Source: an uncultured Pseudomonadota bacterium
GTDB taxonomy: Bacteria; Pseudomonadota; Alphaproteobacteria; Rs-D84
Direction of reading: 5' to 3'
DNA: 64,000 nt
Assembly (NCBI GenBank): GCA_902801125.1
Contig: CADCGT010000002.1
Span: forward strand, 7,157-71,156
Shown: positions 6,566-51,662 of the stretch, piece after piece
How positions within the stretch are numbered: the first letter of the stretch is position 1
Layout of the letters: each line of letters starts with the position of its first letter
The notes under the pieces: model-generated
Told to the model about the DNA's origin: nothing
What the model saw: the letters and a program-made list of their open reading frames with translations, nothing else
The model's database searches: none
Made by a program: the position numbers and the translations under genes

Positions 6566-6586
6566 ATAAAAAACAAGGAGAGAGCA

Positions 6587-7315
6587 ATGAACAACAAAAC
6601 AATTGGAATAATCGCATGCGCGTTGTGCGTGTTGGTGTTGGGGTGGGGCGCGGTAAATCGATTGGCCGAACCACGGACAATAAGTGTGAATGGTGAATGT
6701 TTGACATCCGCGCCAAAGGACAGAACCGCAATCACAATTCGGGTCAGTGTCACGGATAAAAGTGCGGCAAAATCTATGAAGGCGGCATCATCCAAGATTG
6801 CAGAAATCAACAAATACCTTAAAACACTGGATGTCCAGGTTCAAACCAGTGAATTTAATTCATACGAAAAAAATGAATGGAATCCAACAACGCACAAGTC
6901 TGATTTTGTGGGCATTGAAACAAATATCGCACTGGATGTTTCCGCGGCCAGTATTGATACCATTGAAACGGTCTTGACACAATTCGCGGGCCAACCAGAT
7001 GTGTTTGTGACAAACCTGCGTATGTTCACATCAAGCGAAACAATGAAACCGATTCTGGAATCGTGCCTTGGGACGGCGGTTGAAAATGCGCGCGCCCGTG
7101 CGGACGCATTGGCCGCGGGCGTGGGTCGCCGTGCGGGTAAAATGTTAGCGGCATCCTATGGAACGGGCGGTTCATACGATGTGCGCCCAACGGCAAACTT
7201 CCGTATGGCAAAAATGGAAATGGCGGCGGTCGCGGATTCTTATGCCGGTGGCGCAATTACCGGTAAAGATACCGAGGTTTCCGTCACCGTTTCCGCAATA
7301 TTCGAAATAAAATAA
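6587..7315 (+). CDS. SIMPL/DUF541-family periplasmic protein (26-kDa periplasmic immunogenic protein-like)
   Basis: Signal peptide and an 'ISVNGE...' beginning typical of SIMPL proteins. RBS AAGGAGAGAG. Confidence 0.55.
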   Translation: MNNKTIGIIACALCVLVLGWGAVNRLAEPRTISVNGECLTSAPKDRTAITIRVSVTDKSAAKSMKAASSKIAEINKYLKTLDVQVQTSEFNSYEKNEWNPTTHKSDFVGIETNIALDVSAASIDTIETVLTQFAGQPDVFVTNLRMFTSSETMKPILESCLGTAVENARARADALAAGVGRRAGKMLAASYGTGGSYDVRPTANFRMAKMEMAAVADSYAGGAITGKDTEVSVTVSAIFEIK

Positions 7316-7316
7316 A

Positions 7317-8228: not shown

Positions 8229-8392
8229 AATTAAATTGACTTGTTTGTGCATCTGTGCAAAAATAGAAACATGACAATAAGGTTTATAAATTTTTACTGT
8301 TGTTGTTAAATTGTTTTTCTGCAAACATATTGTTTGCGTATTCTGTGTGATTTTGTTATTATAACCATTACGAAAAATATAAGGATTTTGTT

Positions 8393-9811
8393 ATGCAAAT
8401 AAAACTTTACAACACCATGACCCGCAAAGTGGAAGAATTTGTGCCGATTACCCCCAACCATGTTGGAATATACAATTGCGGTCCAACCGTTTATTGGGAT
8501 CAACATTTGGGTAATATGCGCACATTTTTCAACAGTGATATGATGAAACGTATGTTTTTGGCAAATGGGTACACGGTGAATCATGTTATGAATTTTACGG
8601 ATGTTGGGCACCTTACCAGTGATGAAGACACCGGTGAAGATAAAATGGAAAAGGGTGCCGCGCGTGAAAATATGTCTGTGTGGGATATTGCAAACAAATA
8701 TATAAAAAGTTGCGTGAACGATATGAATTTGTTAAATATTATTCCACCGACCCATACACCGCGGGCCACCGACCATATCAAAGAACAAATAGAACTTATT
8801 CAAAAATTGGAAAAATTAGGCTTTACATATGAAATCCCAAACGACGGTATTTATTATGATACATCTAAATTGCCGGACTATGGCAAACTGGGCGGACAAA
8901 ATTTGTCCGAATTGCGTGGCGGCGCGCGCATAGAAAATAATAATAAACGCAATATAACCGATTTTGCGCTTTGGAAATTTTCCCCAAAGGATAAAAAACG
9001 TCAAATGGAATGGGACAGCCCATGGGGCGTGGGATTTCCGGGGTGGCACCTTGAATGCAGTGCAATGAGTATGAAATACCTTGGGGAACATTTTGATATT
9101 CACAGTGGCGGTCAAGAACATATCAAGGTGCATCATACCAATGAAATTGCACAATCTGAACCAATCGTTGGTGCGCCATGGGTGCGTTATTGGGTGCATT
9201 GGGCTTGGCTGATGTTGCGCGATGGGAAAATGGCCAAATCTTCGGGTTCTTTTTACACGGTTCGTGGTTTGATAGAAAAAGGCTATGACCCAATGGCGTT
9301 TCGTTATTTGTTGCTTACGGGGCATTATCGTCAACCGATGGAATTTTCATTTGAATCTTTGGATGCGGCGGCGGCGGGCTATAAAAACATGGTTCGTAAA
9401 ATTGCCGATTTAATGGCCGCGGGTGATACGGAACCGGTCAACCAAGATTTGTATAACGAATGGCATGACAAGATTCTGACCCCGATTTCTGATAATCTTA
9501 AAACATCGGAAACATTGGCGGCGGTCCAGGATTTATTGAAAAATCAGGTTGTAAATCCGGCAACAAAATTGTCGCTGGTCAATTTTATTGATGAATTATT
9601 GGGGTTGCAATTGATGGACCGTGCAAATAAATTGCGCGCGGCGGAATCAGAAACGGCGCCGGCGGATGTTCAAGAATTAGCGAACGCGCGGGCGGATGCC
9701 AAGAAAAATCGTGATTTTGCAACCGCGGACGAATTGCGTGCCAAGATAGATGCGGCGGGTTGGACGGTCATGGATACGCCGGGCGGATTCAAATTGGTTA
9801 AAAAACAGTAA
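8393..9811 (+). CDS. cysS: Cysteine--tRNA ligase
   Basis: YNCGPTVYWDQHLGNMRTF (HIGH region), KMAKSSG (KMSKS), zinc-binding Cys positions. Confidence 0.95.
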   Translation: MQIKLYNTMTRKVEEFVPITPNHVGIYNCGPTVYWDQHLGNMRTFFNSDMMKRMFLANGYTVNHVMNFTDVGHLTSDEDTGEDKMEKGAARENMSVWDIANKYIKSCVNDMNLLNIIPPTHTPRATDHIKEQIELIQKLEKLGFTYEIPNDGIYYDTSKLPDYGKLGGQNLSELRGGARIENNNKRNITDFALWKFSPKDKKRQMEWDSPWGVGFPGWHLECSAMSMKYLGEHFDIHSGGQEHIKVHHTNEIAQSEPIVGAPWVRYWVHWAWLMLRDGKMAKSSGSFYTVRGLIEKGYDPMAFRYLLLTGHYRQPMEFSFESLDAAAAGYKNMVRKIADLMAAGDTEPVNQDLYNEWHDKILTPISDNLKTSETLAAVQDLLKNQVVNPATKLSLVNFIDELLGLQLMDRANKLRAAESETAPADVQELANARADAKKNRDFATADELRAKIDAAGWTVMDTPGGFKLVKKQ

Positions 9812-9886
9812 AATATTTTACAAAAACCGCTTGAATATAACACATTTTGTGCTATATTAAGGCACGTTGCAACAAGAGGATTTTTT

Positions 9887-10438
9887 ATGAATTACCCATA
9901 TATGCCTAAATCCACTGCACTGTGGTTGATTGAAAATACGTCTTTAACATTTGAACAAATCGGCGAATTCTGCGGTCTGCACGAACTTGAGGTTAAAAAT
10001 ATCGCGGATGCCGAGGTTCAAAAGATTCAGGGTCTTGATCCGATTTTGAATGGGCAACTTACCCGTGAAGATATTCAAAAATGTGAATCTGATCCAAATG
10101 CGCGGTTGACATTGCGTGAAAATATTGTTCGTGCCCAAAATGCTCAAAATAAAAAGGGTGTAGGATACACACCAAAATTGCATCGCCAAAATCGTTTGGG
10201 CGGGATTTTGTGGATTTTGAAAAACTGTCCAGAATTGTCGGACGGTCAAATTGCGCGCCTTATGCGCAGCACAAACCCAACGGTTGCATCGGTGCGCAAT
10301 AAAACGCATAAAAATTACAGTGATATTCAAATTCAAAGCCCGATAGTATTGGGGTTGTTGTCGGAATCTGCACTACACGACGCGGTGGCCAAGGCAAACC
10401 GCGCGGCGGAAAAGACAACCAAAGGTAAAAAGAAATAA
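9887..10438 (+). CDS. DUF1013-family protein (alphaproteobacterial, commonly next to rpoD)
   Basis: MPKSTALWLIENTSLTFEQIGEFCGLHELEVKNIADAEV matches my recollection of the DUF1013 N-terminal signature. Confidence 0.55.
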   Translation: MNYPYMPKSTALWLIENTSLTFEQIGEFCGLHELEVKNIADAEVQKIQGLDPILNGQLTREDIQKCESDPNARLTLRENIVRAQNAQNKKGVGYTPKLHRQNRLGGILWILKNCPELSDGQIARLMRSTNPTVASVRNKTHKNYSDIQIQSPIVLGLLSESALHDAVAKANRAAEKTTKGKKK

Positions 10439-13268: not shown

Positions 13269-14349
13269 TATCCAACACGCCGGCGTGATAGACGGTATTG
13301 TTGTATGTTAAATTCAAACTGACGGTGCCGCCGTTACCGGCCTCAAGTGGCACATAGCATGTCACGCCGTTTTGCCTAATATTGATTGCCACACTTGTCA
13401 CCTTGGTTGCAAACAGCGGAAATGATAAACCGGTACCGGTTTTTAATTGTGTGGCAAACGAACACAAATCCGGACACACACCATTATACGCGTGATCACA
13501 CGCCACCGCATCCGGTTTACAGGCAACACGCGGCGTTGCCGCGGTACCGCTTGTGCCAGGTTTCCAATAATTTTCATATCCGGTTGTTACTTGTGTTGTC
13601 CCGGTTGGACATGTTGTAGCCAACTTGGTATCGTTTTTGAATATATCGGTCATATTGGATGTGTTGGATGTGCTTATATTGTCAATACCATCAAATAAGT
13701 TATATGGTATATATCCATCCAAATTAGTGCATCCATAAAACATCTCGTTAAACATTCGTGTTCGTGCGTTTCCGTGTATCCCATCAAATAATGTAGCTGG
13801 AATTAGACCACGCAGGTTGGTTGCGCCACGAAACGCCGAATAAAATAATGGTTGATCCGTTGCACTGGTCCCGTTGTTCAGTGTTGGAAACAAAGCGCCC
13901 AAACTGCCCGAAATTTCGTACAGGTATTCTGGTGTTGCATAACCACCATATATACTTATAACCGCATTTGCATAATTTGTATCTTTCTTTGGATACTGAG
14001 TAAAATTGCCGCTCAATCTAATGGTATAACATTCTTGGTTATCATAAAATTTGCGCGTAATTGCCATACGGTTGTTCAGGTTATTATTTCCTAATGTTTT
14101 GGTTTCTGTGTACCCGTCCCCCCAATCAATATACAAAGTTCCAAGTGCAGAAACATAAAAAGTAAAATCGTCTCCGTTTGATGGGAAATTACATACCCGC
14201 ATTTCAAATTGTGATGGGACACATGTTGCACCGTTGTTTATAGAAATTTCATCAGCTGTGCATGCGACCGCGGGCGCGATATGAAGCGCGCCAAAAACAC
14301 CGACAAATACGAGTGTCGAAATACGCAAAAAACGCACAAGATTCAACAT
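13264..14349 (-). CDS. Secreted repeat protein of unknown function
   Basis: Signal peptide MLNLVRFLRISTLVFVGVFGALHIAPAVA. Internal repeats GLIPATLFDGIHGN / GYIPYNLFDGIDNIS. Cys-rich C-terminus. Confidence 0.55.
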   Translation of the reverse strand: MLNLVRFLRISTLVFVGVFGALHIAPAVACTADEISINNGATCVPSQFEMRVCNFPSNGDDFTFYVSALGTLYIDWGDGYTETKTLGNNNLNNRMAITRKFYDNQECYTIRLSGNFTQYPKKDTNYANAVISIYGGYATPEYLYEISGSLGALFPTLNNGTSATDQPLFYSAFRGATNLRGLIPATLFDGIHGNARTRMFNEMFYGCTNLDGYIPYNLFDGIDNISTSNTSNMTDIFKNDTKLATTCPTGTTQVTTGYENYWKPGTSGTAATPRVACKPDAVACDHAYNGVCPDLCSFATQLKTGTGLSFPLFATKVTSVAINIRQNGVTCYVPLEAGNGGTVSLNLTYNNTVYHAGVLDN

Positions 14350-14399
14350 GTTATATTTTTGCTGGTTTTTCCTTTCCTTATCTTTAATTTAAGGCTAGC

Positions 14400-14420
14400 A
14401 AAAATGCGCCAAACGGCGCA
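14400..14420 (-). terminator. Rho-independent terminator downstream of the coiled-coil gene
   Basis: GCGCC-gttt-GGCGC followed on the minus strand by ATTTTT. Confidence 0.5.
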
Positions 14421-14458
14421 AGTATAAATATATATTTTTTACAATTTTTTTAGATTTT

Positions 14459-16387
14459 TTATATCTGTGCGGCAAGTGCGGAATATATCACACCCAAATC
14501 CGTCTTGATCAATGTTGCCGACAATTTATCGGGGGCGTCTGTTTGTTTTGCCGCCACCAATATTTTATCGAAACTGCGCACGAATTGTGTCGCCTGGGAC
14601 CGGAATACAGAATCAGATTTTAACAAATCGCGAATCCTTTTTTTGTCGGCGGCGCGAACGATTTTCGCCATCCACTTTGCGAATATTGTTTTGTCGCCAT
14701 CGTGATACTTTTTCCAAACAACATCTGGAATTTCACCACCCATAGCGCGGGTAAGGTCGATTGTCTGTTCATACATTTTATCAAATTCACGCGCACTGGC
14801 GTCCAAGAAATCGCGGCTGCTGGCGCCCGGGATCGGTGCCGCGGTGGTGGCGGATTTAATCGCCTCCATCGGGGCGGCGGCGCGCGCAACCATCATTTGT
14901 TTGTTCAATGTCTGCATCGTGTCAACGGCCTTGGCATAGTCAGACATCAAATCAATCATTTGTTGGCGCGATGCCCCGGCCAGGTTTTCCAATTTCAACG
15001 CAGATTCAGAAACACTGACCGTCGATTTTTCGACCGTATCGCGTATTGCGGCAATTTTTTCATCCAATTCCGATACAATTTTGCCAAGTCCAATTCCGGC
15101 GTCGCCCGATTGCCGCGCCAATTCGGGCAGGGCTTCATAGTATTTTTCAATCAATTCAGACAGCGGTTTTAACTGGGCGGTTGTTTGTTCCGACATTTTA
15201 ATCAATCCTTCGGATTGGCCGGTCAATTGCGTGTGTGCCGCGTTCATTTCTATCAATGTTTCGCGCACGCCCGTCGCCATGGATTTAACCGATTCGGAAA
15301 ACGCGTTTGCGGCGGTCTTGGTGTCTTTTAATGTTGTGTTCGCAACGCCAGATACGGTCTGTAATTCACCAACAACATCGTTTGCAAAATCCTTGATTTC
15401 GGTTTCAAAATGATTGGTCAAACCCGACAATTCGGACGATATGCCGCGCACAGAACTTTCCGTTTCGGTTGCACTGGTCATCAAAGATTCAACCGCATCG
15501 GTCAATTTCTTGATTTGTTTTTCGATGGACGATTCCGATAATAAAACCTGGGCGCCGACGACATTCGCGGTGTTCGTAAGGGTGTTCATCTGGGCCGTCA
15601 ATTGCTTTTTGCTCTGTTTGCCGAAATTATCAAGTTTGCTAAGGTATGCATTTATAACCTTGTTATTTTCATCGATAACATTTTCATAATTTGATGCAGA
15701 ATTTTTAATTTCATTAAATCCATCAACACTGTTTTTGGTCAATTCTGAAATTTGACCCTGGATAGTATTTGATTCTTCGGTCATTTTTTGAAATTGTTCT
15801 GTGTTGGATTCAAACGCACTACGCAATTGGTTTTCAAGGTTTCCACTGGCATCGGTCCACTGTGCGATTTTTGTGTCGATTTGTGAAATTTTGTCGGTGG
15901 AATCGTTTGTGGTTTCGGTTATGCGCGCCAATGTTTCGCCAACGGTTTGTGCAAATCGGTCTGTTGCCGATGCGGCGTTTTCCCACGATTTGGATGTCAC
16001 CACCTGGGTAAGGCCGGAAATAGTATTATCCATGCGCCCGGTCATTTGAACCACGCGTTGAATCGCATTGTTTGCAACATCAACCAATTCTGTATTGTGC
16101 GTGTTCAATTCATCACGCAATTTCTGGGCAGATTCGATTTGTGAATTTAATGTTGCCTGCATGTTTTGGAAACACGCAATAATGCGTTTAATTTCATCCG
16201 CCATTATTACCTGTAATACGCGTGACGCATCGGTGATTCGCGCACGGTCGGGCGCGGTCATAATCGATATGACCGATTCCATAACGCGCTGGGATTTTCG
16301 CGATATGAAAAACAGCACAATCAACGCGATAAACATTAAACCCATAACCGATATACCGGCGATAACCAAAATATTGTTTAAATCCAT
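14459..16387 (-). CDS. Membrane-anchored long coiled-coil protein
   Basis: N-terminal TM segment ILVIAGISVMGLMFIALIVLFFI, then ~550 aa of Q/E/T/S-rich heptad-like sequence and a globular C-terminal domain. No MCP signalling signature. Start at the internal ATG with RBS AAGGAAATG. Confidence 0.55.
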   Translation of the reverse strand: MDLNNILVIAGISVMGLMFIALIVLFFISRKSQRVMESVISIMTAPDRARITDASRVLQVIMADEIKRIIACFQNMQATLNSQIESAQKLRDELNTHNTELVDVANNAIQRVVQMTGRMDNTISGLTQVVTSKSWENAASATDRFAQTVGETLARITETTNDSTDKISQIDTKIAQWTDASGNLENQLRSAFESNTEQFQKMTEESNTIQGQISELTKNSVDGFNEIKNSASNYENVIDENNKVINAYLSKLDNFGKQSKKQLTAQMNTLTNTANVVGAQVLLSESSIEKQIKKLTDAVESLMTSATETESSVRGISSELSGLTNHFETEIKDFANDVVGELQTVSGVANTTLKDTKTAANAFSESVKSMATGVRETLIEMNAAHTQLTGQSEGLIKMSEQTTAQLKPLSELIEKYYEALPELARQSGDAGIGLGKIVSELDEKIAAIRDTVEKSTVSVSESALKLENLAGASRQQMIDLMSDYAKAVDTMQTLNKQMMVARAAAPMEAIKSATTAAPIPGASSRDFLDASAREFDKMYEQTIDLTRAMGGEIPDVVWKKYHDGDKTIFAKWMAKIVRAADKKRIRDLLKSDSVFRSQATQFVRSFDKILVAAKQTDAPDKLSATLIKTDLGVIYSALAAQI

Positions 16388-25716: not shown

Positions 25717-25760
25717 GGTTAAATACTACCGCCATATCGCCAACAAGTCAAATTAAAAAA

Positions 25761-25794
25761 AGTGGCTAGTGCAAGTGGTTAGTGTTAGTGGGGG
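25761..25794 (+). repeat. Tandem TTAGTG-type hexamer repeats (GTGGCTAGTG CAAGTGG TTAGTG TTAGTG GGGG)
   Basis: Direct reading. Same motif at 35128-35150, 37683-37700 and 44053-44069. Confidence 0.6.
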
Positions 25795-25803
25795 TATTTA
25801 TCG

Positions 25804-25831
25804 TTGACTTGCCTTGATTTTATAGTATCAT
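25804..25831 (+). promoter_or_regulatory. Candidate sigma70 promoter TTGACT-N16-TATCAT for the orphan operon
   Basis: Hexamers about 25 nt upstream of the first ATG at 25857. Confidence 0.35.
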
Positions 25832-25856
25832 ACCCACAAAACCAAAGGATATTAGA

Positions 25857-26414
25857 ATGGCAGATAACGATAATTTTGAAGAAAAAGAAATACAATCTGA
25901 TGACCCAATGATCCAAAAATGTTTGGATATTATCCGTGATAAAAGGGCCTGGGTGGAAGATTTATGTGATAATGGTATTTACAGTGTATATATTGGTAGG
26001 AAAAAATATTTTCAAATTCAGAGATGTTATAATAGTGGTACGAAATACAATATAGACATAAACTACCAAACTTATAAGTTTTATGGGTCACGACCGGATT
26101 TGGAAGAATTGTATAGGTTGTGTAATTCTAAATATGCCGACAAATCAAAAGAAAGACAACAAAACGCACTTGATTTTTTGCGTACCAAGGAAAGTACCAA
26201 GGAAAGATGCAGAATAAAACCTGGGGTGCTTTTTATGATTGCGGGAATACTGGTCATGGCTGCAGCGATTGTGAAATATCAAAAAGACCAAAAAACGCAA
26301 CGCGTGGAAGAAAAAGTTAAAGCATATGAAAAAACTCTGCCGGCGGATTATTTGGAATATAAACAGGCGGTTGAACACTATCGCGACAGTTTAATGCACG
26401 CCAAAGGCCGGTAA
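25857..26414 (+). CDS. Orphan operon gene 1, hypothetical protein with one C-terminal TM helix
   Basis: ORF with RBS AAAGGAT. TM segment GVLFMIAGILVMAAAIV. AT-rich, AGA/AGG Arg codons. Confidence 0.5.
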   Translation: MADNDNFEEKEIQSDDPMIQKCLDIIRDKRAWVEDLCDNGIYSVYIGRKKYFQIQRCYNSGTKYNIDINYQTYKFYGSRPDLEELYRLCNSKYADKSKERQQNALDFLRTKESTKERCRIKPGVLFMIAGILVMAAAIVKYQKDQKTQRVEEKVKAYEKTLPADYLEYKQAVEHYRDSLMHAKGR

Positions 26415-26430
26415 ACAAAAAAGGAATAAA

Positions 26431-26826
26431 ATGCCAGCGCAATCGATAAATGAATACACTGAAATGATGTCTGAACCCGGGGTTAGCGTTTCCAAGGTCG
26501 ACCTGGGGGATTTTTGTGGCTTTATGGATGACCGGCGGGACAACAGTTTTATTATATCCAAAGATGGCGAAAAAGTATTCGGTATTCGGAATTCGCACAT
26601 ATACTTTGGCCGCATTATTAGAATCAAAATGAACACTATCACTTTGTATGATCCGCACGACTATCGGTCTTTGGTGACCAAGCGGTTCGGTCAAAATGGT
26701 TATAAAGAACTGTATAAATTGCAACGTGCGGTGGAAAATATCTATACAAAACAAAATGAATACGAAAAATCCAATATGTCGGATGTTCGTGGTCAGATGT
26801 TTCGGCATGATAACGGTCGGCAATAA
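26431..26826 (+). CDS. Orphan operon gene 2, hypothetical protein
   Basis: ORF 16 nt after gene 1 with RBS AAAGGAATAAAATG. Confidence 0.45.
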   Translation: MPAQSINEYTEMMSEPGVSVSKVDLGDFCGFMDDRRDNSFIISKDGEKVFGIRNSHIYFGRIIRIKMNTITLYDPHDYRSLVTKRFGQNGYKELYKLQRAVENIYTKQNEYEKSNMSDVRGQMFRHDNGRQ

Positions 26827-26838
26827 AAAGGATAAAAA

Positions 26839-27264
26839 ATGAATCAAACTGACAAGAAAACCGTGGTAACATTGACCAATATTCCACAGGGTTTGGGTGA
26901 ACGAACGAAATTGAATTGTGGCGAAATAACCGAAAAACAGAAACAAGATTTCTTGGCCTCAATTATGCGCTTTGACCCAGAATCAACAAATTTTGCCAAT
27001 CATTGTGGGTTTAATTTGTATTATGATAAATTTAATGCTTGGGTTGCTCCGTTTGGTATGAAAAGGAACTATAAACCACAATATCGCAGAAATGGTGACA
27101 AAGAAATGGTAATAGAAACCATGCCTATGAAATCCCCAGAATGCGGTGCATATGAAAAAAGCGAATGTCCAAAATATTTAGCAGACGGCAAATGCACATC
27201 GCCATTGGTTAAACGGACCGTTGGTGCACTGTTGTTCCCCGATAAATATGGGAAAGAAAGATAA
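26839..27264 (+). CDS. Orphan operon gene 3, hypothetical Cys-containing protein
   Basis: RBS AAAAGGATAAAAAATG. Cys pairs CGEI..., ECGAYEKSECPKYLADGKC. Confidence 0.45.
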   Translation: MNQTDKKTVVTLTNIPQGLGERTKLNCGEITEKQKQDFLASIMRFDPESTNFANHCGFNLYYDKFNAWVAPFGMKRNYKPQYRRNGDKEMVIETMPMKSPECGAYEKSECPKYLADGKCTSPLVKRTVGALLFPDKYGKER

Positions 27265-27282
27265 AAATAAAAGGATAAAACA

Positions 27283-27897
27283 ATGCGATTACAATCATCT
27301 GTTCATTTTGAGATTTTTTCCGAGCTGTTTTATTTGAAAAATATATCCGACCAGACTGGATACAAGCAGCTGTTGACACCGGCATCACGCAGAGCCTCCA
27401 TAGCCGCGCAATTACGTGACGGCACATCAAAACAACCCCAGGACCTGTTGGAATCTGTCCGCGATTTTTGTTTGCATATTGCGACAAGTGCCGAAGATTC
27501 CTTTTACCTGGACAAACTGACATACTTGGTTAAATTGTATCGCAAGGTTAGAATTGCCGATACTGATGACAAAGAGTATTTTCAACATCATGATTTTAAT
27601 GGTGACAAATTTGAATTTATACTGGCCACAAATGATAAATTGATATACCCACGCGATATTAAAAGTGCTTTGCGTGTCCCATTTTATTTTAGCAGCATTA
27701 TAAGCGATAAAGAATTAAAGTCGGATACCCCAGTATATATAGAAAAATATGACACACATAATGCCGTTGTGCGACCATTGACAATGCAAGATAGGGTCGT
27801 TGATAAAAATTTGAACCAAATTTGGCCACTGGATACAAGAGAAACTCCAATGGGGTTAAAGAAATTGCTAGAACAAACAACCGAAAAAGTGAGATAA
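27283..27897 (+). CDS. Orphan operon gene 4, hypothetical protein
   Basis: RBS AAAAGGATAAAACAATG. Confidence 0.45.
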   Translation: MRLQSSVHFEIFSELFYLKNISDQTGYKQLLTPASRRASIAAQLRDGTSKQPQDLLESVRDFCLHIATSAEDSFYLDKLTYLVKLYRKVRIADTDDKEYFQHHDFNGDKFEFILATNDKLIYPRDIKSALRVPFYFSSIISDKELKSDTPVYIEKYDTHNAVVRPLTMQDRVVDKNLNQIWPLDTRETPMGLKKLLEQTTEKVR

Positions 27898-27928
27898 CCA
27901 ATACGGTAAAAAATAAAAAGGTATTAAA

Positions 27929-28381
27929 ATGAACGATAATGAAGTAAATAAACTTATTCGTTATATATTAGAACATAAGCCACCAAAGTTTCGTCTGCGC
28001 ATAGAATATTTAGGAAAAGAAGTATCAAGAGCCGAACTTTTCGATATCGCGTATCCATTTAGGTATAATGATAGCGTTTTGCATTTAGGTAAAAAAATAA
28101 AACTGTCTTTTAATATGCTTGACACGTGTCAACGTTGTAAAGATGAAATCAATATAATGACATCTTTAACTAAATCAGATGTTGCATCAGAATTACTGCA
28201 ACATCACACCATTCAACCGGGCAATTATAGTATGGATGCAGATACTAAGAAAATGGTGATCAAGGCGTTTATACAGCAAAAGAACAAAGACATTCGTATC
28301 AGAAAATTTCAAGACGGGATCTATGCTGTGTTTCATCAGTTGGCGCACTTTGGTAAAAAAGCACAAACAAATAATCGATAA
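27929..28381 (+). CDS. Orphan operon gene 5, hypothetical protein
   Basis: RBS AAAAAGGTATTAAAATG. Confidence 0.45.
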   Translation: MNDNEVNKLIRYILEHKPPKFRLRIEYLGKEVSRAELFDIAYPFRYNDSVLHLGKKIKLSFNMLDTCQRCKDEINIMTSLTKSDVASELLQHHTIQPGNYSMDADTKKMVIKAFIQQKNKDIRIRKFQDGIYAVFHQLAHFGKKAQTNNR

Positions 28382-28399
28382 AAAAAAAGGAAAATAAAA

Positions 28400-29020
28400 A
28401 TGTCTTATTGGTTTTGGGATGATTGTGGTGGTATGTCGGATTTTCAACAGGAGTATGTTGCGGCATTCCTGGATGGTAAAATGCCCGATTTAATGAACGA
28501 AATTATGGAAACCGCCAACAAGTTCAACAATGATGTTTGTAAAAATGATGTCCGTAAATCTGATATTCCAAATACAGAATACATAACAATAAACGCCAAT
28601 GGTATCTTTGTTGGTGGTAAACCATCGACACATTATCGTGGTGAAAAAATAAAGTCCTCGGACTTGGCAATTAGCATTTTTGGTTCCATACAAAGAGAAA
28701 TCAATCCAAATGTTCAAGAATTACATGTTTTGTCATCTGAAACCAGGGGGCATCGTGCGCAAACTGGGAAACCAAGTGCTGAACCTGGCGAAAATGCATG
28801 GTATCGTGTGAAATTTAATGATGGAACAATATCTGATTGGGTTTATCTTTCATCACAAGGCAGTGGCCCAAGTTGTGCACGAATTTGTGCATATATTTGT
28901 GCAGATGATGCCCGCTATGGCCACCAATTTCTTCCTGTAGAAAAGCCGGAAGAAACAATGTCCGCTTGCGAAAGAATAAAAAGATTTTTTGGTAAAAAAA
29001 CAACCGAAATTTCGCGATAA
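28400..29020 (+). CDS. Orphan operon gene 6, hypothetical protein
   Basis: RBS AAAAGGAAAATAAAAATG. CARICAYICADD Cys cluster. Confidence 0.45.
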   Translation: MSYWFWDDCGGMSDFQQEYVAAFLDGKMPDLMNEIMETANKFNNDVCKNDVRKSDIPNTEYITINANGIFVGGKPSTHYRGEKIKSSDLAISIFGSIQREINPNVQELHVLSSETRGHRAQTGKPSAEPGENAWYRVKFNDGTISDWVYLSSQGSGPSCARICAYICADDARYGHQFLPVEKPEETMSACERIKRFFGKKTTEISR

Positions 29021-29034
29021 TAAAAAGGCAACAA

Positions 29035-29940
29035 ATGTCGAATTCGTATGATAAACATGTCTATAGGGTTAAGTCGGATGAAGAAATGGCAAAGATCGCG
29101 GCCAAGGCCGAGGAAGAATTTCGCGATCAACAAACAATCGAACTGAATAAAGAATTGGACCGGCATAAAACCGAACTCGATCAATTGCCGGAAATATTTC
29201 GTGTCCGAATTGGTGCCTTGCAAGAAGTCAACCCAGAAAAATTTTCGGATTGCCCCGAACTTACCCTGGCCAGTTTGGCGGCCGCGCGCCTGGTTCGGAG
29301 TTTGCCGGACAAATTCCGGGATATTTCAAACACATATTATAACGAGGTTATTTTTGAATATGGGATATTGTGGGACGTTATCAAACCGAACGCGGTATCA
29401 AAATTGGTGTATGCATATCGCGATGATGTAAAAAGCGGCGCAATTGATAAAAATGGTAATGTTAAAAATCTGACAAAATCCAAAGTTATGACACTATGTC
29501 ACGATTCCGAAGAATACGGCCGGCCGTGTGATGCCAATGGTGTGTATTTTCGGTTTAACTGTAAAAAGCCAAAATCGGGAATAACCCTTAAACAAATTAT
29601 TCGCAGTCATATACGACCATACAAATACTATTCCGATGATAACAAACTGGTTGGATCCTATGTCATGCATATGCCGAATGAATTTGATGGGCGACCATGG
29701 CCCAGTATAAAATTTACCCCATCTGTTGGAACGTATGTCGAAACCGCGGTTGGTGCATCAATTCAGATATCGTACGATTATCAAACCAATGTTTGGATGG
29801 TGTTCCGTGGTGTGCAAATCGATGTGCCGTATAAAACCAAACCCAGCGAGATTGAGGCAATTGTTGATAAATACCTTAACGCATGGCATCAATTGGTGGC
29901 GACACGTGGGCATCTTGTCGCCGCAGATTATAGCGATTAA
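29035..29940 (+). CDS. Orphan operon gene 7, hypothetical protein
   Basis: RBS AAAAAGGCAACAAATG. 301 aa, no recognisable motif. Confidence 0.45.
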   Translation: MSNSYDKHVYRVKSDEEMAKIAAKAEEEFRDQQTIELNKELDRHKTELDQLPEIFRVRIGALQEVNPEKFSDCPELTLASLAAARLVRSLPDKFRDISNTYYNEVIFEYGILWDVIKPNAVSKLVYAYRDDVKSGAIDKNGNVKNLTKSKVMTLCHDSEEYGRPCDANGVYFRFNCKKPKSGITLKQIIRSHIRPYKYYSDDNKLVGSYVMHMPNEFDGRPWPSIKFTPSVGTYVETAVGASIQISYDYQTNVWMVFRGVQIDVPYKTKPSEIEAIVDKYLNAWHQLVATRGHLVAADYSD

Positions 29941-29961
29941 ACAATATGAAAGGAAAATAAA

Positions 29962-30729
29962 ATGATGGATAAAACAAATTCAAAAACAATTCCAACACCA
30001 TTGTTCGAGGCATCTACGGCATACAAACGTCTGTGTGGCTTGCAATGTGATATTAAAAACAATGATGTATATGGGCTTTATGTTTATATGCGTGGCGATG
30101 GGGTCGCGTTGGTGCAAGACAAAGATACCGATTTAGGGGTTGAACAATATCATTTGGCCAATGGGGATTATTGCGACAAATATTACAATTTATTGTGCCA
30201 GGTCAAAGATTATGAAAATTTTTTGATTTCCGAGGTTAATGAAAACGCCAAAATAGCCAGCATTATGCCCAAAAATATTGATATATTTAACAAAGGATAT
30301 AACCCCAATGAAACAACATCGTGGCGCAGGTCGCGTTGCATTTTTCGATTTGGCAACCCACAAATGGTGCCATTGAATGTATTTGGCGGATACAATCCGA
30401 TAGTTATACAAAAAGATAGTGCCGATTTGATCGGGATTGGCGAATGTGTTCCTGTATTCAAAACGGTCATAGTTTGTAAAAACCAACCGGATTATTATGT
30501 GTATTTGATAAAATTGATTGATTCCATTCATGCCGGGGCCGGCACTTATGCAAAACGCCCCTGTATTCACATTTCGTTATTTGATAACAGGGAAAATGCG
30601 GATGCATACAAAGAATATATGGACTCGGAATCTGAAAAATTTCAAAACTATCCGATGTATCCGGACATTGAAAAACAGTGTTATCCCGCCCTGCAACGGT
30701 TCGATAAATATATGGGCAAATCGCGGTAA
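29962..30729 (+). CDS. Orphan operon gene 8, hypothetical protein
   Basis: RBS GAAAGGAAAATAAAATG. Confidence 0.45.
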   Translation: MMDKTNSKTIPTPLFEASTAYKRLCGLQCDIKNNDVYGLYVYMRGDGVALVQDKDTDLGVEQYHLANGDYCDKYYNLLCQVKDYENFLISEVNENAKIASIMPKNIDIFNKGYNPNETTSWRRSRCIFRFGNPQMVPLNVFGGYNPIVIQKDSADLIGIGECVPVFKTVIVCKNQPDYYVYLIKLIDSIHAGAGTYAKRPCIHISLFDNRENADAYKEYMDSESEKFQNYPMYPDIEKQCYPALQRFDKYMGKSR

Positions 30730-30742
30730 AAGGAAAACAAAA

Positions 30743-31495
30743 ATGGCAGAAGCTGCAAAGAAATTCTTGGAACAATATGGGCTGGACAAATTGCCACGAA
30801 TTGACGGTAATTACGCAAAGTTTCGGGGCAAATACGTCTTTATGTTGCACGATTATGCACCAATATCTCAATCGATACTGCATGGCGGTAGCGGTAGAAT
30901 TGGTGTTAAACGCATGGAAAATTTTTGGTCCTTGGTGGCGAACGGTGCACGCGTGGTGGATGGCATATTTATCTCCACCCCATGGTCAATCGAAGACCCT
31001 TTTCAAAGACGTTTGGGAGAACCAAAAAAAATAGATACAAATTATGTGATATATACTATGAAAGCTATCAAGAATGATAATTGGATTGATGTGCCACATG
31101 GATTTGCGAAAGACCCATACGATAAGACCTTTATGAAACACATGCGGGATGGCGACCGTGCAACATTAGAAAACATAATTATTCATGAACGGGATAAAGA
31201 AGGTTGGTGGGATTTTAACGAACGAAAAAAGTGGTGGGATTACGAAAAATCCAAGATCAAATCAGCACTGTTATTAGATGGTTTTGATGTGTTTGTTTGG
31301 GCAACGACTTTGTTGGATGTTGACCCAAAGGCAACACTTAACCTTTTGCGTTATGCTAGCACAAAAATGCCATGTTTCCTGGATTCTGGTTTTGAACATT
31401 ATTATGATGACAACAGTCAATGTGAACCATATATTCCTAACAAAGTCAGGGTAACCGTATATCTTGGTACAGAAATTGTGGACCAAAGTCGTTGA
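30743..31495 (+). CDS. Orphan operon gene 9, hypothetical protein
   Basis: Start chosen at MAEAAKKF with RBS AAAAGGAAAACAAAAATG. The longer track ORF (30518) overlaps gene 8. Confidence 0.45.
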   Translation: MAEAAKKFLEQYGLDKLPRIDGNYAKFRGKYVFMLHDYAPISQSILHGGSGRIGVKRMENFWSLVANGARVVDGIFISTPWSIEDPFQRRLGEPKKIDTNYVIYTMKAIKNDNWIDVPHGFAKDPYDKTFMKHMRDGDRATLENIIIHERDKEGWWDFNERKKWWDYEKSKIKSALLLDGFDVFVWATTLLDVDPKATLNLLRYASTKMPCFLDSGFEHYYDDNSQCEPYIPNKVRVTVYLGTEIVDQSR

Positions 31496-31521
31496 TTTTT
31501 AACAACAAAAAAGAGATAAAA

Positions 31522-31803
31522 ATGGCAAAAGAAATTGAAATGGAACCTTTGTATGAACGGGATTATAATTTGCCCCAAGACACATATGTTTGTTCGGCTA
31601 CTGGGTTGGTATGTGAAAAGGTATCACAACATTTTCGTGAATATCGTGCATTTATAGAACACTTGTCTGAAACAAATGATAACAGATTATTTTTACAAGG
31701 TGAACCAAATTTGTGTATTGATCCGGATTATTTTGGTCGTTGCACTGTTTATGATAATGTTATGAAAAAAGTTGCCGAGCTCGCCAAAAACAAAGGTCGT
31801 TAA
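31522..31803 (+). CDS. Orphan operon gene 10, hypothetical small Cys-containing protein
   Basis: Start at MAKEIEME with RBS AAAGAGATAAAAATG. Confidence 0.4.
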   Translation: MAKEIEMEPLYERDYNLPQDTYVCSATGLVCEKVSQHFREYRAFIEHLSETNDNRLFLQGEPNLCIDPDYFGRCTVYDNVMKKVAELAKNKGR

Positions 31804-31838
31804 AAATCCTATCCTTTACACCGATTTTATGATATAAT

Positions 31839-31863
31839 TCTCCTGTTATCACAGGAGATTTTT
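31839..31863 (+). terminator. Rho-independent terminator whose 3' arm supplies the SD for the next gene
   Basis: TCTCCTGT-tatc-ACAGGAGA followed by TTTTT, then ATG at 31864. AGGAGA sits 5 nt before the ATG. Confidence 0.55.
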
Positions 31864-32154
31864 ATGAAAGAAATAATTGCTTATGCATTTTTATCTGTTT
31901 ATACCATTTTGGAATTTGTTGCCTATATTCCCCAGATTATCAAGATATTAAAGACCCGGCATGCCGATGATTTAAGTTTAACATCTTGGTTCGTATGGAT
32001 TACAACCGATTTGTCTTATTTGGGGTATGTTCTGTTGGAAACACCAGAGGTTGGTGTGATATTTATCGCCACACTAGATTTGGTATTTATTGTGACCGTA
32101 TTCTTGCTAACCGCATATTATCAAAAACACAACAAACGTAAAAAAAGATGCTAG
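31864..32154 (+). CDS. PQ-loop / SemiSWEET-like small membrane transporter
   Basis: 96 aa, three predicted TM helices, YIPQIIKILKTRHADDLS (PQ-loop motif). Confidence 0.55.
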   Translation: MKEIIAYAFLSVYTILEFVAYIPQIIKILKTRHADDLSLTSWFVWITTDLSYLGYVLLETPEVGVIFIATLDLVFIVTVFLLTAYYQKHNKRKKRC

Positions 32155-32161
32155 CACTAAA

Positions 32162-32187
32162 AAAATCCCCGCATTTGCGGGGATTTT
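32162..32187. terminator. Bidirectional rho-independent terminator
   Basis: AAAATCCCCGC-attt-GCGGGGATTTT. Confidence 0.7.
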
Positions 32188-32201
32188 GAAATACGCAAAA
32201 A

Positions 32202-45894: not shown

Positions 45895-46455
45895 ATGTCA
45901 AAGAACTTAACTCCTATGGAAAAATTTAACGCAATGGAAGAAAAACGCATATTTAACGAATATATTGTTGTGGATTACAACTGTCGCAATAAAGGCACTG
46001 TTACCGTGACATTGATTTCAACATATACAACCGCAGCCCCTAAACAAATTACATTAGATAATCATTGGGGTGCCCGCAAAAAAATGTTAGATGCAGACAG
46101 TTGTATATGGAACATTGGTTCTTTGGTCACTTTAACCAAAGACGGTAAAATCAAACCGGTTAAATATGATATGCGTAAATGCGACACTATGTTGGTCACC
46201 GGTGCATATAACACCTTTAACACATCGCGAATATTATCGTTGATGGGCAAAAAGTTTGGTCAGACAACACTGTGTATTTCCCCGGAACCAATACATATTT
46301 GGCATCAAAAATTCTATTCAACTGAACGGGGCGATATCGTATTGGTTCGCCCAACCAACCCACAATTGGAACCAGACAACGAATATCAAATCCTGCGTAA
46401 TTTCACAATGGAAGAAAAAATACGCAAGTTTTTTGAATCGCAACGCCAAAGATAA
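45895..46455 (+). CDS. Hypothetical protein (mini-island gene 1)
   Basis: Start at MSKNLTPMEKF with RBS AAAAAGGAAAAATATG. AT-rich, AGA codons, no recognisable motif. Confidence 0.45.
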   Translation: MSKNLTPMEKFNAMEEKRIFNEYIVVDYNCRNKGTVTVTLISTYTTAAPKQITLDNHWGARKKMLDADSCIWNIGSLVTLTKDGKIKPVKYDMRKCDTMLVTGAYNTFNTSRILSLMGKKFGQTTLCISPEPIHIWHQKFYSTERGDIVLVRPTNPQLEPDNEYQILRNFTMEEKIRKFFESQRQR

Positions 46456-46537
46456 TACCACGGTGCATTACAAGTGCCGGAATATGTGGGCGTGTTTGCC
46501 GAACGGCGAAAAAAAGAATAAAATAAAAAGATTAAAA

Positions 46538-47422
46538 ATGTTAAAGAATAGGTGGGTTGTTACCAAGAAAAATAATGTTGCAAATTGTCCCGGTATATTT
46601 AATTACACTATTGTTCCTGTGGATGGATGGGGCGACAAGGATGATTATGAATTATATGATAAAGACATTTTATCAAAACGAAATCTTGATATTGGCACAT
46701 ATACCGATGATGACCTGAACCCGGTATATGAACACTATAAATACCTGAACACCGATATCGCCACCGTAGAATCAACCACAGTCCAGGTGTATAAACCTGG
46801 CATGACCCGGTTAAATGTTTTTGGGGACCGTTTTGGTGAATTTTCCTTTTTGGTTGATGACCAAGGCATACCGTTCAGAATCACCCGTGGCGATAACATC
46901 TTGGTTCAGCGCAAATATGACGTGGCGGACTTTGTGTGGCCCCAAAAACCCGATGATGATGACGATGAATACAGCGACCCATTATTGCAGGATATTATGG
47001 GGACACGCCGTGAAATGCAAAGATGCCAAGAACCAGAAGAATTGGTTGGGCCTTACTTTCACATACTGTATAATGTGACCACAAAACGCAAAGCAAAAAG
47101 TTTTCCAAAAACCAAAAAAACGCACTCAAAAAGTAATTTCGGCGATTGTGACCGTGTGGTCGTATTGGGTGTTTCACCCACATGTCTTGAATACGATATG
47201 CAAAAGCACCTGATTATACACAGTGACAAATTCGGGTTAATAAGTTGTTTGGCCGATGAATATCAATCCGAATTTCATGCCTATACCCAAGATAAACTTT
47301 TAATTCAGCAATACTATGATTACAACGCGGGCGAAATTGCATACAGGATACTGGCCAACAAAACCATCGATGACATGCGCAGCTTGATGTTAAGACGGAA
47401 TATTCAATTCCGTCATCGGTAA
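46538..47422 (+). CDS. Hypothetical protein with poly-Asp tract (mini-island gene 2)
   Basis: Start at MLKNRWVV with RBS AAAAAGATTAAAAATG. KPDDDDDEYSD acidic tract. Confidence 0.45.
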   Translation: MLKNRWVVTKKNNVANCPGIFNYTIVPVDGWGDKDDYELYDKDILSKRNLDIGTYTDDDLNPVYEHYKYLNTDIATVESTTVQVYKPGMTRLNVFGDRFGEFSFLVDDQGIPFRITRGDNILVQRKYDVADFVWPQKPDDDDDEYSDPLLQDIMGTRREMQRCQEPEELVGPYFHILYNVTTKRKAKSFPKTKKTHSKSNFGDCDRVVVLGVSPTCLEYDMQKHLIIHSDKFGLISCLADEYQSEFHAYTQDKLLIQQYYDYNAGEIAYRILANKTIDDMRSLMLRRNIQFRHR

Positions 47423-49559: not shown

Positions 49560-51632
49560 CTATTGATCAGCCTTTGGTGCCGCACAAGTCGAACAAGCCT
49601 CCATAGCGGTTACACGACTTTGCAACGCCGTGTAATTTGCGGACAATGTACTATAATTATTCTGCAACGTGGTATAACTATTCCGCAAATCGGTAAGTTG
49701 CGCCTGCAATCCCTGTGTACAATTACCACCATCAGAAACACTGGTGCCACTGCATGTGCCATTAACAGTTGTTTCAACGGTACCTAAACGCCCCAGAACA
49801 CTGTTCGCACCGGCCGTACCTATACCAACCGTAGTGTTCAAAGTGTTAATCTGTGACGTATGACCACTGGCTGTGGTTTGTGCGCTTTGTGCTGCGCTTA
49901 ACGCACTGGATGCGTCGTTGGCCGCATTGTTCGCGGTGGTCTCGACGGTTGTCAATGCCGACTTGGTCGCATAGGTGCTTGATGCGTTGTTTTGTGTTAA
50001 ATACGTACTGCTGGCATCAGTCTGTTTTAGATACGTGTTGGTTGCATCGGTTTTGCTAAGGTACGTACTTTGCGCGTCTGTTTTATTCAACTTGTCATCC
50101 AAACCGCTTAATGCGCTGGCTGCATCTTGCTTTGCCTGGGTTGCATCGGTTGATGCCGTATTCGCGGTACTTACCGCATTTGCCGCACTTGTCTTGGCAT
50201 CTGCAACATCTTTGACCAGGCCACCGGACGCATTGCCAATGGTACTGGTGTTTGTTGTCACCTGTTTAACCAGACCGCCATTCGAATCACCAACCGTTGT
50301 TTCCAACGCAGTAATTTTGCCATCTGCGGTATTCAACGCCGTTTGTGTTGCGTACGTTGATGACGCATCCGCACTGGTAAGGTATCCGGTTAACGCACCC
50401 GAACCCGCAACCGCGCTTGCCAAATCTGTCTTCACAGAATTGTCCTTTAACGCGGTTCCCAAATTCGCCGTTTGCAGATACGAACTTAATGTCGTATTCA
50501 AACTATCGGTCGTTACCTTGTTAGATGTTGCCGACGTGATTTTATTGGTCACTTGAGCTGACGTATCATAATCCGACAACGCCGTGCTTATCGCACTGTT
50601 TACATCGGACGATGTCACCTTGTTTGCGACCGCATTATCGGTATAAGTTTCCGCCGCAGTTTGCGCCGCATCAATTGCCGTAGAAATTGCACTGGCATTT
50701 TGTGTGGTTATCGGACGACAGATATTATATACCGCACTGGTATCTTGACGTGCACATTCCATATATACTCCGTCATTACCACTGCATATATCCTTGTTTG
50801 ATGAAACAATTGGAACACACGTATCTTCATAATCTGTGCTGTTTATGGTATCGTTGCACATTGTTTGCGCCAATCTTACATACCCCGCCTTCGTCGCAGT
50901 CGGCGCCGTATATGTTTTTGTATACGTTTTCACCGCGGTCGCCGGATTTGCAACATTATCGCAAATTCCGACACCGTTTGTACCCGGCGCACCATCGTTA
51001 CCATCCTGACCGTCCGGTATATCCACCGTACTGGTGCTGCCGCAACCACTAATGGTCACAACTGTCTTTTTATTCGTGGCATCATGTGCACTGCTGAATG
51101 TCGGTTCGCAATTTGTACCATTGGTACCCGGCGCACCGTCACATACCAGTTTATTAACTGGTGTGCCGGCGGTACAGGCGTCATTTACCAAAGAATACGG
51201 TGTCTTGGTAATAGTATAGCAACCCTGGGCATTCTTATCGCTAATATCAACCTTGTCCGCACAACCCGGCGCACCGTCTTGACCCGCGGCACCGTCTGTA
51301 CCGTCTTGAACGGTTTCCGTCCAAACCGTGGTGTTATTACAATCCGTTGCCGTCAGTGTCGTTGTGCCCCCAACTTTACTCTTGGTAATCGTCGTTGCAC
51401 AACCTGGCGCGCCATCTTGACCCGCGGCACCGGTTGCGCCAACCAGCGATGCCAAGAAATCGGCCTCGCTTCCGGTATTACCGGCATCCTGCCAAATCTG
51501 ATATGCAGATTTACCGGTTGCACCAACAGGAACCTTGATAGTTCCCATGGTTGTCTGTGCGGAAACATTATCGGTCACACCGAAACCCAACAACACAGCA
51601 CCACACAAACACAACAAACTTACTTTCTTCAT
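49560..51632 (-). CDS. Large secreted fibre protein with collagen-like GxY triplets, Cys-paired beta modules and Ala/Thr/Ser-rich coiled-coil repeats
   Basis: Signal peptide MKKVSLLCLCGAVLLGFGVTDNVSA. Repeated GQDGAPGC / DGAPGTNG. Module shared with the next gene (VANPATAVKTYTKTYTA...YEDTCVPIV). STY-rich heptads. Confidence 0.6.
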   Translation of the reverse strand: MKKVSLLCLCGAVLLGFGVTDNVSAQTTMGTIKVPVGATGKSAYQIWQDAGNTGSEADFLASLVGATGAAGQDGAPGCATTITKSKVGGTTTLTATDCNNTTVWTETVQDGTDGAAGQDGAPGCADKVDISDKNAQGCYTITKTPYSLVNDACTAGTPVNKLVCDGAPGTNGTNCEPTFSSAHDATNKKTVVTISGCGSTSTVDIPDGQDGNDGAPGTNGVGICDNVANPATAVKTYTKTYTAPTATKAGYVRLAQTMCNDTINSTDYEDTCVPIVSSNKDICSGNDGVYMECARQDTSAVYNICRPITTQNASAISTAIDAAQTAAETYTDNAVANKVTSSDVNSAISTALSDYDTSAQVTNKITSATSNKVTTDSLNTTLSSYLQTANLGTALKDNSVKTDLASAVAGSGALTGYLTSADASSTYATQTALNTADGKITALETTVGDSNGGLVKQVTTNTSTIGNASGGLVKDVADAKTSAANAVSTANTASTDATQAKQDAASALSGLDDKLNKTDAQSTYLSKTDATNTYLKQTDASSTYLTQNNASSTYATKSALTTVETTANNAANDASSALSAAQSAQTTASGHTSQINTLNTTVGIGTAGANSVLGRLGTVETTVNGTCSGTSVSDGGNCTQGLQAQLTDLRNSYTTLQNNYSTLSANYTALQSRVTAMEACSTCAAPKADQ

Positions 51633-51662
51633 ATCAACATCTCCATAAATTATCAATTGTCT

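Follow-up and report, generated by a model that had tools for sequence, protein, structure and literature searches.

Reshuffled arrays of orphan genes with arginine-ended tails next to rplS in an uncultured alphaproteobacterium of the order Rs-D84

How does a run of ten compact orphan genes come to lie between conserved chromosomal genes of a bacterium with a strongly reduced genome, and what might such genes be needed for? This question is raised by a 64-kb stretch of contig CADCGT010000002.1, in the following referred to as the window, from an uncultured alphaproteobacterium of the order Rs-D84. Unless another locus is named, coordinates are positions in this window. Its segment 25761-32159, with the DUF2155 gene on the left and the rplS terminator on the right, spans an accessory island in which ten open reading frames (ORFs; g1 to g10 in their order) of 93 to 301 aa lie on one strand within a 6.4-kb block, followed by an eleventh gene designated PQ. 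The spacers from g1 to g10 measure 16, 12, 18, 31, 18, 14, 21, 13 and 26 nt, and an A-rich Shine-Dalgarno (SD) sequence of the AAGGA type is present ahead of every start codon of the array. A preliminary description of this DNA had presented the segment as a tightly packed, co-directional set of ten lysine-rich orphan proteins with A-rich SD sequences, AT-richer than its surroundings, freely using AGA and AGG and probably acquired horizontally. The packing, the orientation and the deviating composition are confirmed by calculation: the GC content of the array amounts to 0.387 versus 0.461 in 27 flanking genes, that of third codon positions to 0.359 versus 0.458, and AGA and AGG account for 27% of its arginine codons versus 5% in the flanks. 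The label “lysine-rich” is appropriate only to a modest degree, with 6 to 11% lysine in the array proteins versus 3 to 9% in the flanks. Both the observation as such and the horizontal origin stand, while the shuffling of cassettes, the C-terminal arginine tails and the apparently separate status of PQ had been missed.

The host is attributed to Candidatus (Ca.) Enterousia (order Rs-D84, Alphaproteobacteria), one of a group of widespread uncultured gut and rumen bacteria. Its members have genomes of less than 1 Mb, lack most biosynthetic pathways as well as respiration and are believed to depend on other cells as obligate symbionts or parasites (PMC12306168).

Variable gene content at a core-flanked site

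The comparison comprised 80 species-level loci anchored on tsaD (78 to 96% identity) in which all genes were mapped; L-numbers denote the fetched loci of relatives, including metagenome contigs. In about 40 of the 80 species the interval between the DUF2155 gene and rplS is empty, measuring 42 to 160 bp, with a spacer that holds AAGTCAAATTRAAAA and the rplS terminator. Two unrelated genes occupy this position in about 14 species that are more distant, and eight species harbour arrays of 1.3 to 7.4 kb with overlapping but differing gene sets, as do several metagenome contigs in the form of mosaic arrays. Since relatives have an empty site, the composition deviates and the divergence of the genes is out of step with that of the flanks, we regard the segment 25761-32159 as an island which was in all likelihood acquired horizontally at a core-flanked hotspot.

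The arrays usually start with g1 and end with PQ and contain between two and twelve cassettes whose families and order vary by species. While the window reads g1-g2-g3-g4-g5-g6-g7-g8-g9-g10-PQ, the order is g1-f13-g4'-f14-g5-g6-g7-g8-g10'-g10-f15-f6-PQ in L081, g1'-g7-g8-g5-PQ in L083, g1-g6-g5-g10-PQ in L008, f10-f5-PQ in L002 and g1-f11-g10-PQ in L132. The search for synteny in other genomes, which had been proposed beforehand, hence did retrieve related arrays, but with gene set and order shuffled between species. L002 is the closest relative (tsaD 96% identical), yet none of g1 to g10 is found there. In L084, a g8 allele of 60% identity sits between copies of g7 (100%) and g9 (96%). The g5 gene retains 97% identity across three distinct neighbour contexts, its position relative to g6-g8 changing between arrays, and g10 and f7 are duplicated in certain arrays. 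DNA homology among the arrays begins and ends at the junctions of stop codon and SD sequence, and in L008 a 31-nt remnant of the 3' end of g8 is left ahead of g5. Modules of the type g1...PQ also occur at other sites: L004 has one upstream of rimM, and L133 has one that is flanked by rnhB and pgk. Further orphan arrays flank rpsB-tsf or rpsD, and ribosomal-protein operons are frequent neighbours of arrays at such other sites in the lineage.

Two observations on individual arrays may be added. Around rpsB-tsf, L137 (162-3526 and 5583-8561) and L129 (10001-14504) carry arrays of six to nine close-set orphan genes including several g6-domain paralogues, nearly all proteins of which end in ...Q(N/I)KR. 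Between g10 and PQ, L081 (about 6004-7073) and L043 (about 3317-4480; both interval coordinates) contain a stretch of about 1 kb with only the short ORFs f15 and f6 and a TATAAT-like motif, which could represent decayed cassettes or a non-coding element.

Synonymous (dS) and nonsynonymous (dN) divergence was calculated according to Nei-Gojobori between the window and L081, L043, L058, L057 and L083. The core genes tsaD, xseA, rplS and rimM yield dS values of 0.9 to 1.7, the array genes values of 0.03 to 0.48, each gene having its own (0.035 to 0.047 for g5, 0.08 for g7 and 0.11 for g6; PQ combines a dS of 0.05 to 0.08 with a dN of 0). Synonymous divergence of the array genes thus lies 5 to 30 times below that of the flanking core genes. 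Because array dS ranges so far under core dS, the array genes must have crossed between species long after these had split, each with a history of its own. Along with the empty sites and the mosaicism, this difference bears out the presumed horizontal acquisition strongly. The dN/dS ratio amounts to 0.10 to 0.56 in the array and to 0.04 to 0.2 in the core. As the array ORFs persist as intact frames in many metagenome-assembled genomes and their dN/dS lies between 0.1 and 0.56, they are real genes under purifying selection and not spurious frames, a possibility the preliminary description had taken into account.

A cassette consists of an A-rich SD sequence, an ORF and its stop codon, with 12 to 31 nt to the next start, and one conserved sigma-70 promoter serves the whole run; the array genes would be expressed together and translationally coupled. 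Between species, cassettes are gained, lost, duplicated, reordered and swapped for divergent alleles. According to the mechanism we propose, this variation would arise through homologous recombination with crossovers that fall within the very conserved flanks, within shared cassettes or within the short junctions or tails, and a dedicated integrase and att sites would play no part. From the breakpoints we infer that homologous recombination drives this shuffling. In L002, the rplS terminator together with the last ~90 nt of rplS is present on both sides of the f10-f5-PQ insert as a direct repeat of 130 nt (95% identity), which suggests a signature of Campbell-type or flank-mediated recombination; the arrays at the canonical site are accompanied by neither an integrase nor an att-like repeat.

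With integron arrays the present ones share a promoter at the head and co-oriented, promoterless, mostly orphan cassettes whose number, order and identity vary in close relatives. In contrast to integrons, however, IntI is missing: the genes within 10 kb of the array are uvrD, recN, xseA, tsaD, the AmiA-like gene, the DUF2155 gene, rplS, trmD and rimM, and none of them matches Phage_integrase. Likewise, attC sites, which are imperfect inverted repeats of ~60-140 nt, are lacking as the spacers comprise 12 to 31 nt only, and a repeat search returned nothing but the A-rich SD junctions, with no inverted repeats at the junctions. Furthermore, the cassettes are bounded by stop codons and parts of adjacent genes persist as remnants, which points to homologous or microhomology-based rather than site-specific recombination. 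With neither attC nor an integrase, the integron model is rejected; the array appears to follow integron-like cassette dynamics in the absence of both.

Within the window, all ten array genes are located on the plus strand. The lead gene g1 (25857-26414, 185 aa) encodes an N-terminal alpha+beta domain, one transmembrane (TM) helix, as noticed before, a hypervariable centre and a near-invariant C-terminus of 40 aa. Its family comprises 75 sequence clusters with near-invariant ends, a hypervariable centre and a dN/dS of ~0.5, and the AlphaFold model of its N-terminal domain has helix-driven structural matches only, none of them a meaningful neighbour. The orphans g2 (26431-26826, 131 aa), g3 (26839-27264, 141 aa, containing Cys, with a distant relative of 29% identity in the L133 array), g4 (27283-27897, 204 aa, with alleles of 33 to 36% identity in L081, L042 and L047) and g5 (27929-28381, 150 aa, a mobile cassette) follow. 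The g6 gene (28400-29020, 206 aa) encodes a Cys triad, CAxxCAxxC, and a core domain (residues ~55-175) which defines a large uncharacterised family of 620 representatives; its fold is predicted confidently by AlphaFold, yet has no known structural neighbour. A distant relative of this domain, P0310, is a protein secreted via Sec with five repeats. The orphan g7 (29035-29940, 301 aa) is always adjacent to g8 and has relatives of at least 77% identity only, apart from one partial match at 49%. The remaining orphans are g8 (29962-30729, 255 aa, nine Cys), g9 (30743-31495, 250 aa counted from the ATG, with an allele of 47 to 48% identity in L059) and g10 (31522-31803, 93 aa, four Cys).

That these proteins are orphans holds for all ten: no family match at E<0.001 was obtained in Pfam, PHROGs, NCBIfam or PADLOC, and an all-against-all BLASTP for paralogy among them returned nothing below E=0.9. 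The only PADLOC matches are that of g1 to the generic “1TM effector” model (E=0.001 exactly, 17 bits, covering the TM helix only) and a 12-bit match of g10; by the PADLOC models, g1 to g10 accordingly do not seem to represent a known anti-phage defence system. Among families from the other arrays Pfam detects merely DUF1653 (f10), an ACP-like domain and a DUF3419-like domain. Sequence searches of the PDB (profiles of g6 and g1; g7, g8 and g9) provided a single lead, a match over 35 residues between g7 and PvuII, which was rejected given an hhalign probability of 2.4% and a putative catalytic Lys that is Glu in most homologues. Upon inspection of the translations, no signal peptide was found on g1 to g10.

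Boundaries, promoters and the PQ gene

The left insertion boundary (25746-25760) is formed by AAGTCAAATTAAAAA, which occurs in empty-site species too, just upstream of the rplS terminator. Next to it lies a variable upstream element with TAGTG-type repeats, GTGGCTAGTGCAAGTGGTTAGTGTTAGTGGGGG (25762-25794, plus strand), which is a candidate operator, followed by the array promoter of the sigma-70 type, TTGACT-16-TATCAT (25804-25831, plus strand). This promoter is kept in nine loci, whatever gene comes first. In other arrays an 18-bp perfect palindrome, GTCACGACATGTCGTGAC, partly replaces the TAGTG-type repeat element. It is found at 8548-8565 of L081 and in variant form in L043, L008 and L059, just upstream of the -35 hexamer of the array promoter, and is absent from the window where the TAGTG repeats hold its place. 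This palindrome, too, is a candidate operator; a role as dispersed repeat or regulon site was discarded, there being no further copy in the window or the fetched loci.

At the opposite end, an extended -10 promoter of PQ, TGATATAAT (31830-31838, plus strand), is unchanged across 11 arrays and is directly followed by a hairpin of eight pairs, TCTCCTGT-tatc-ACAGGAGA (31839-31858, plus strand), and then TTTTT. The hairpin, whose 3' arm includes the SD sequence of PQ, is conserved, one pair being preserved via a compensatory change, and looks like the terminator of the array. The right boundary is a bidirectional intrinsic terminator at about 32160-32189 which is common to PQ and rplS and also present at empty sites; Rfam produced only sub-threshold matches, located at this terminator. 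The elements named in the preliminary description, i.e. an upstream hexamer array with a promoter, a terminator providing the SD sequence of the next gene with its 3' arm, and a strong bidirectional terminator further downstream, were thereby all recovered.

PQ (31864-32154, plus strand) encodes a 96-aa PQ-loop or SemiSWEET-like membrane protein and is the usual right end of the arrays. Residues 6-59 match PF04193 of Pfam (E=4.2e-13, 49.3 bits vs a cut-off of 22) with the PQ motif present, and in length (~90-100 aa) and number of hydrophobic segments (three) it corresponds to a PQ-loop protein. At the protein level it is 100% identical among species whose rplS is just 87% identical. Homologues of 70 to 90% identity stand alone in more distant species, which rules out PQ as an obligatory component of the arrays. 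Because of its own invariant promoter, the hairpin over its SD sequence and the stand-alone occurrence in distant species, PQ is best regarded as a transcription unit of its own that, in this clade, has become tied to the arrays and sweeps with them. The earlier assignment as SemiSWEET-like is retained. With SemiSWEET and PQ-loop transporters, to which it is likened by sequence only, PQ shares the PF04193 match and the PQ motif; it differs in travelling with an array, with a dN of 0 across species, and in its 5' hairpin sequestering the SD sequence.

C-terminal arginine tails

A terminal Arg is present on eight of the ten array proteins of the window (on g3, g4, g5, g6, g8, g9 and g10 among others, g7 being one of the two without it) as compared to 9.5% of 412 core ORFs (binomial p=2.4e-7), and it is encoded by four different codons. 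Of 49 proteins from nine further arrays, 33 (67%) have Arg and seven (14%) Lys as their last residue; for the g6 family the respective shares are 53% and 21%. Entire tails recur on different families: g6 and the g10 paralogues g10' have “...RIKRFFGKK.TEI.R/K” in common, g8 and f14 “...CYPALQRFDKYMGKSR”, and g2 and the unrelated family f11 “...VRGQ.FRHDNGR”. In L129, L135, L136 and L137, unrelated proteins all bear “(I/F)AETQQ(N/I)KR” followed by TAA AAGG. In these latter tails the codons of Ala, Thr, Asn and Ile vary synonymously while CAA ... AAA AGA TAA is invariant. As the residues are kept through synonymous change whereas AAA AGA TAA stays fixed, constraint acts on both the protein and the junction. 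The basic tail ending in Arg is thus real; it may serve as a tag by which the proteins are recognised or reflect a constraint on the stop-SD junction. A recoding event joining neighbouring ORFs across AGA-TAA was rejected since, given the spacer lengths, the following ORF occurs in each of the three reading frames. Together with the stop-SD junction, the terminal Arg tail provides a simple signature for finding more genes of this kind.

Apart from the array, the window contains two adjacent low-GC orphan genes on the plus strand (45895-47422; 186 and 312 aa; GC content 0.38 to 0.40) both of which encode a terminal Arg. The 186-aa protein (45895-46455) ends in ...EEKIRKFFESQRQR, which is similar to the g6 tail. 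The pair shows no homology to the array families and is absent from the other fetched loci.

Conceivable functions of the array genes

We tentatively favour the view, to which we nonetheless assign somewhat less than an even chance, that the array genes are conflict-related accessory cargo in a recombination hotspot. Under diversifying selection, they would serve in defence, in counter-defence or in addiction/immunity, and would act singly or as the pairs g7-g8, g9-g10 and g5-g6. This view is ranked first because of the contexts rich in mobile genetic elements and defence genes in which related arrays occur, the free variation in content, the adjacent pairs g7-g8 and g9-g10, the divergent alleles at one position and the fast-evolving lead gene g1. 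As to the contexts, two integrases, a resolvase, HTH_17 and HNH genes and an MmeI-like restriction-modification (RM) gene are found in L130/L131, where g1 and an array begin 14 nt further on. The array of L136 adjoins genes for type I RM, SIR2_2 and DUF4238, and capsid genes are not far away. In L126 a g6-family gene shares its island with genes for an OLD-like nuclease and a SLFN-type helicase, an integrase being located a few kb off. Other arrays hold GNAT, NUDIX-adjacent, SAM-methyltransferase-like, AlkD-like and ACP-like genes. The complete explanation, i.e. a shuffled island carrying conflict-related cargo, is in our judgement about as probable as not.

The following details concern these loci. 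The integrative element of L130/L131 (~1-10000), whose two recombinases are of the tyrosine type, also encodes a Type_ISP_C protein and an AAA_14/DUF4143 protein; its MmeI-like RM enzyme comprises 819 aa, and 14 nt separate the RM stop codon from the g1 start. In L136, an Enterousia-like contig, Phage_T7_Capsid and Phage_capsid_2 genes (13816-15973) are situated a few kb from the orphan array.

Several points weigh against conflict-related cargo. Searches of Pfam, PHROGs, NCBIfam and PADLOC linked no array protein to a known family of defence, anti-defence, toxin or immunity proteins, viral relatives were found neither by sequence nor by fold, and no mobility or defence gene lies within 10 kb of the window array. 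The associations with mobile elements and defence genes come from just three other loci, and the proposed shuffling by homologous recombination is deduced from breakpoints. A common handling at the protein level, as suggested by the conserved tail, is not predicted for conflict cargo. According to a published survey (PMC11834463), known defence systems are scarce in Enterousia, which leaves room for unknown ones but is not evidence for them.

As in core-flanked hotspots of horizontal gene transfer and in defence islands, the flanks are core genes, the composition deviates, the content varies between strains or species, the island has no mobility genes of its own and similar arrays elsewhere adjoin RM, SIR2 and OLD-like genes. 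In contrast to such islands, the arrays are uniform, tight single operons of small proteins sharing tails and include no known defence family. Long, co-oriented arrays of small, fast-evolving, exchanged genes with conserved junctions are also formed by the rAID genes of gut Bacteroidales and by orphan immunity genes of polymorphic toxins. All of these traits, including the occurrence in gut bacteria, recur here; what differs is that neither a recombinase nor a toxin gene is adjacent and that no Pfam immunity family is matched. Taken as a whole, the array is a variant of variable accessory islands and cassette arrays and would be something newer if the tail proved to be a sorting tag. Within a genome of less than 1 Mb, an orphan operon of 6 to 7 kb which is selected, traded and reshuffled is likely to matter in dealing with phages, mobile elements, competitors or a partner, and the arrays provide defined candidate genes along with the new g6-core domain family.

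The tail is central to a second explanation, which we consider rather unlikely: the proteins would constitute an exported repertoire of effectors for interaction with a partner, with the Arg tail serving as an uncleaved signal for a translocator which is new or resembles a type IV secretion system (T4SS), and with reshuffling due to an arms race against the partner cell or animal host on which the bacterium relies. Support comes from the reduced genome and the presumed partner dependence (PMC12306168), from the sharing of tails by non-homologous proteins, with Arg at the end of 8/10 proteins in the window and 67% elsewhere, and from the residues of “(I/F)AETQQ(N/I)KR” surviving synonymous codon change. 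In AlphaFold models the tails are flexible or exposed, several proteins are rich in Cys (though g1 to g10 are devoid of signal peptides by inspection), the g6-domain relative P0310 is secreted and alleles evolve fast. Conversely, the MmeI-like RM enzyme ahead of the L130 array, a cytoplasmic protein, ends in “...QMSR” and bears the same “...SR-TAA-SD” junction, which argues against a pure secretion signal. In some arrays AAA AGA TAA AAGG is almost invariant as DNA, so part of the signal may lie in the junction itself. Neither the 64-kb window nor the fetched fragments of relatives showed a secretion-system gene, and the genome paper on Enterousia mentions no secretion system (PMC12306168).

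Effectors of VirB/D4-type T4SS in Alphaproteobacteria, by comparison, possess C-terminal translocation signals which are uncleaved and positively charged, and the array tails may resemble these in being a basic, presumably uncleaved extreme C-terminus on unrelated proteins of a host-dependent alphaproteobacterium. Known signals of this kind are, however, looser clusters of positive charge with an undefined terminal residue, which counts against the effector explanation, whereas the final residue of the array tail is fixed (Arg, less often Lys), some clades share a tail of eight residues, the RM enzyme bears the same ending and no T4SS is seen in the window or the fetched loci. That the tail (“...GK..R”, “...AETQQNKR”) is a new C-terminal sorting tag which marks a lineage-specific protein repertoire, traded horizontally, for export or delivery to a partner cell by undescribed machinery is, in our opinion, unlikely. 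If it were, the Patescibacteria-like Enterousia would carry a partner-interaction toolkit in integrase-less shuffled arrays beside ribosomal-protein operons.

An origin as stranded remnant or cargo of a phage, a satellite or an integrative element, contributing early or anti-defence genes as considered in the preliminary description, is improbable. The small, close-packed, co-directional low-GC orphans, some with four-Cys motifs, would suit it, as would the location of one array inside an element with integrase, resolvase and excisionase-like genes and the capsid genes near another. Yet four scans of IMG/VR (g5, g7, g8 and the g6-family profile) gave no relatives, INPHARED tblastn with g7 none, PHROGs nothing significant for g1 to g10 and a Foldseek search of BFVD with the g6 model no neighbour, leaving a phage-derived set unsupported. 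The window array lacks integrase, capsid and replication genes, as already stated in the preliminary description, and it shares with the canonical-site arrays the absence of these and of terminase; moreover, the promoter is a conserved chromosomal one, and in several species the arrays are maintained by purifying selection. Highly improbable, finally, is an undescribed multi-component machine or pathway with g1 and PQ as membrane parts and the soluble proteins as parts or substrates, since one promoter, close spacing, constant orientation, g1 usually first and PQ usually last, and a g1-PQ pair recurring at at least three chromosomal sites are opposed by two to twelve cassettes of families and orders differing freely between species, by the lack of g1 to g10 in L002, by the own promoter and solitary occurrence of PQ and by the separate divergence history of each gene. 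The genes rather look like independent cassettes or pairs.

Two further regions of the window deserve mention. To the left of the array, the three adjoining core genes in the segment 24342-25716 (AmiA-like gene, 102-aa ORF and DUF2155 gene) evolve much faster than tsaD or xseA, with a dN of 0.25 to 0.37 between species vs 0.03 to 0.15, and the AmiA-like gene is missing in several species. Between iPGM and dnaE, four consecutive ORFs of ~690, 412, 524 and 782-808 aa occupy 49560-56913 on the minus strand; they have no Pfam match at E<1e-5, at least two possess N-termini resembling signal peptides, and together they make up a further cluster of orphans which possibly are surface proteins.

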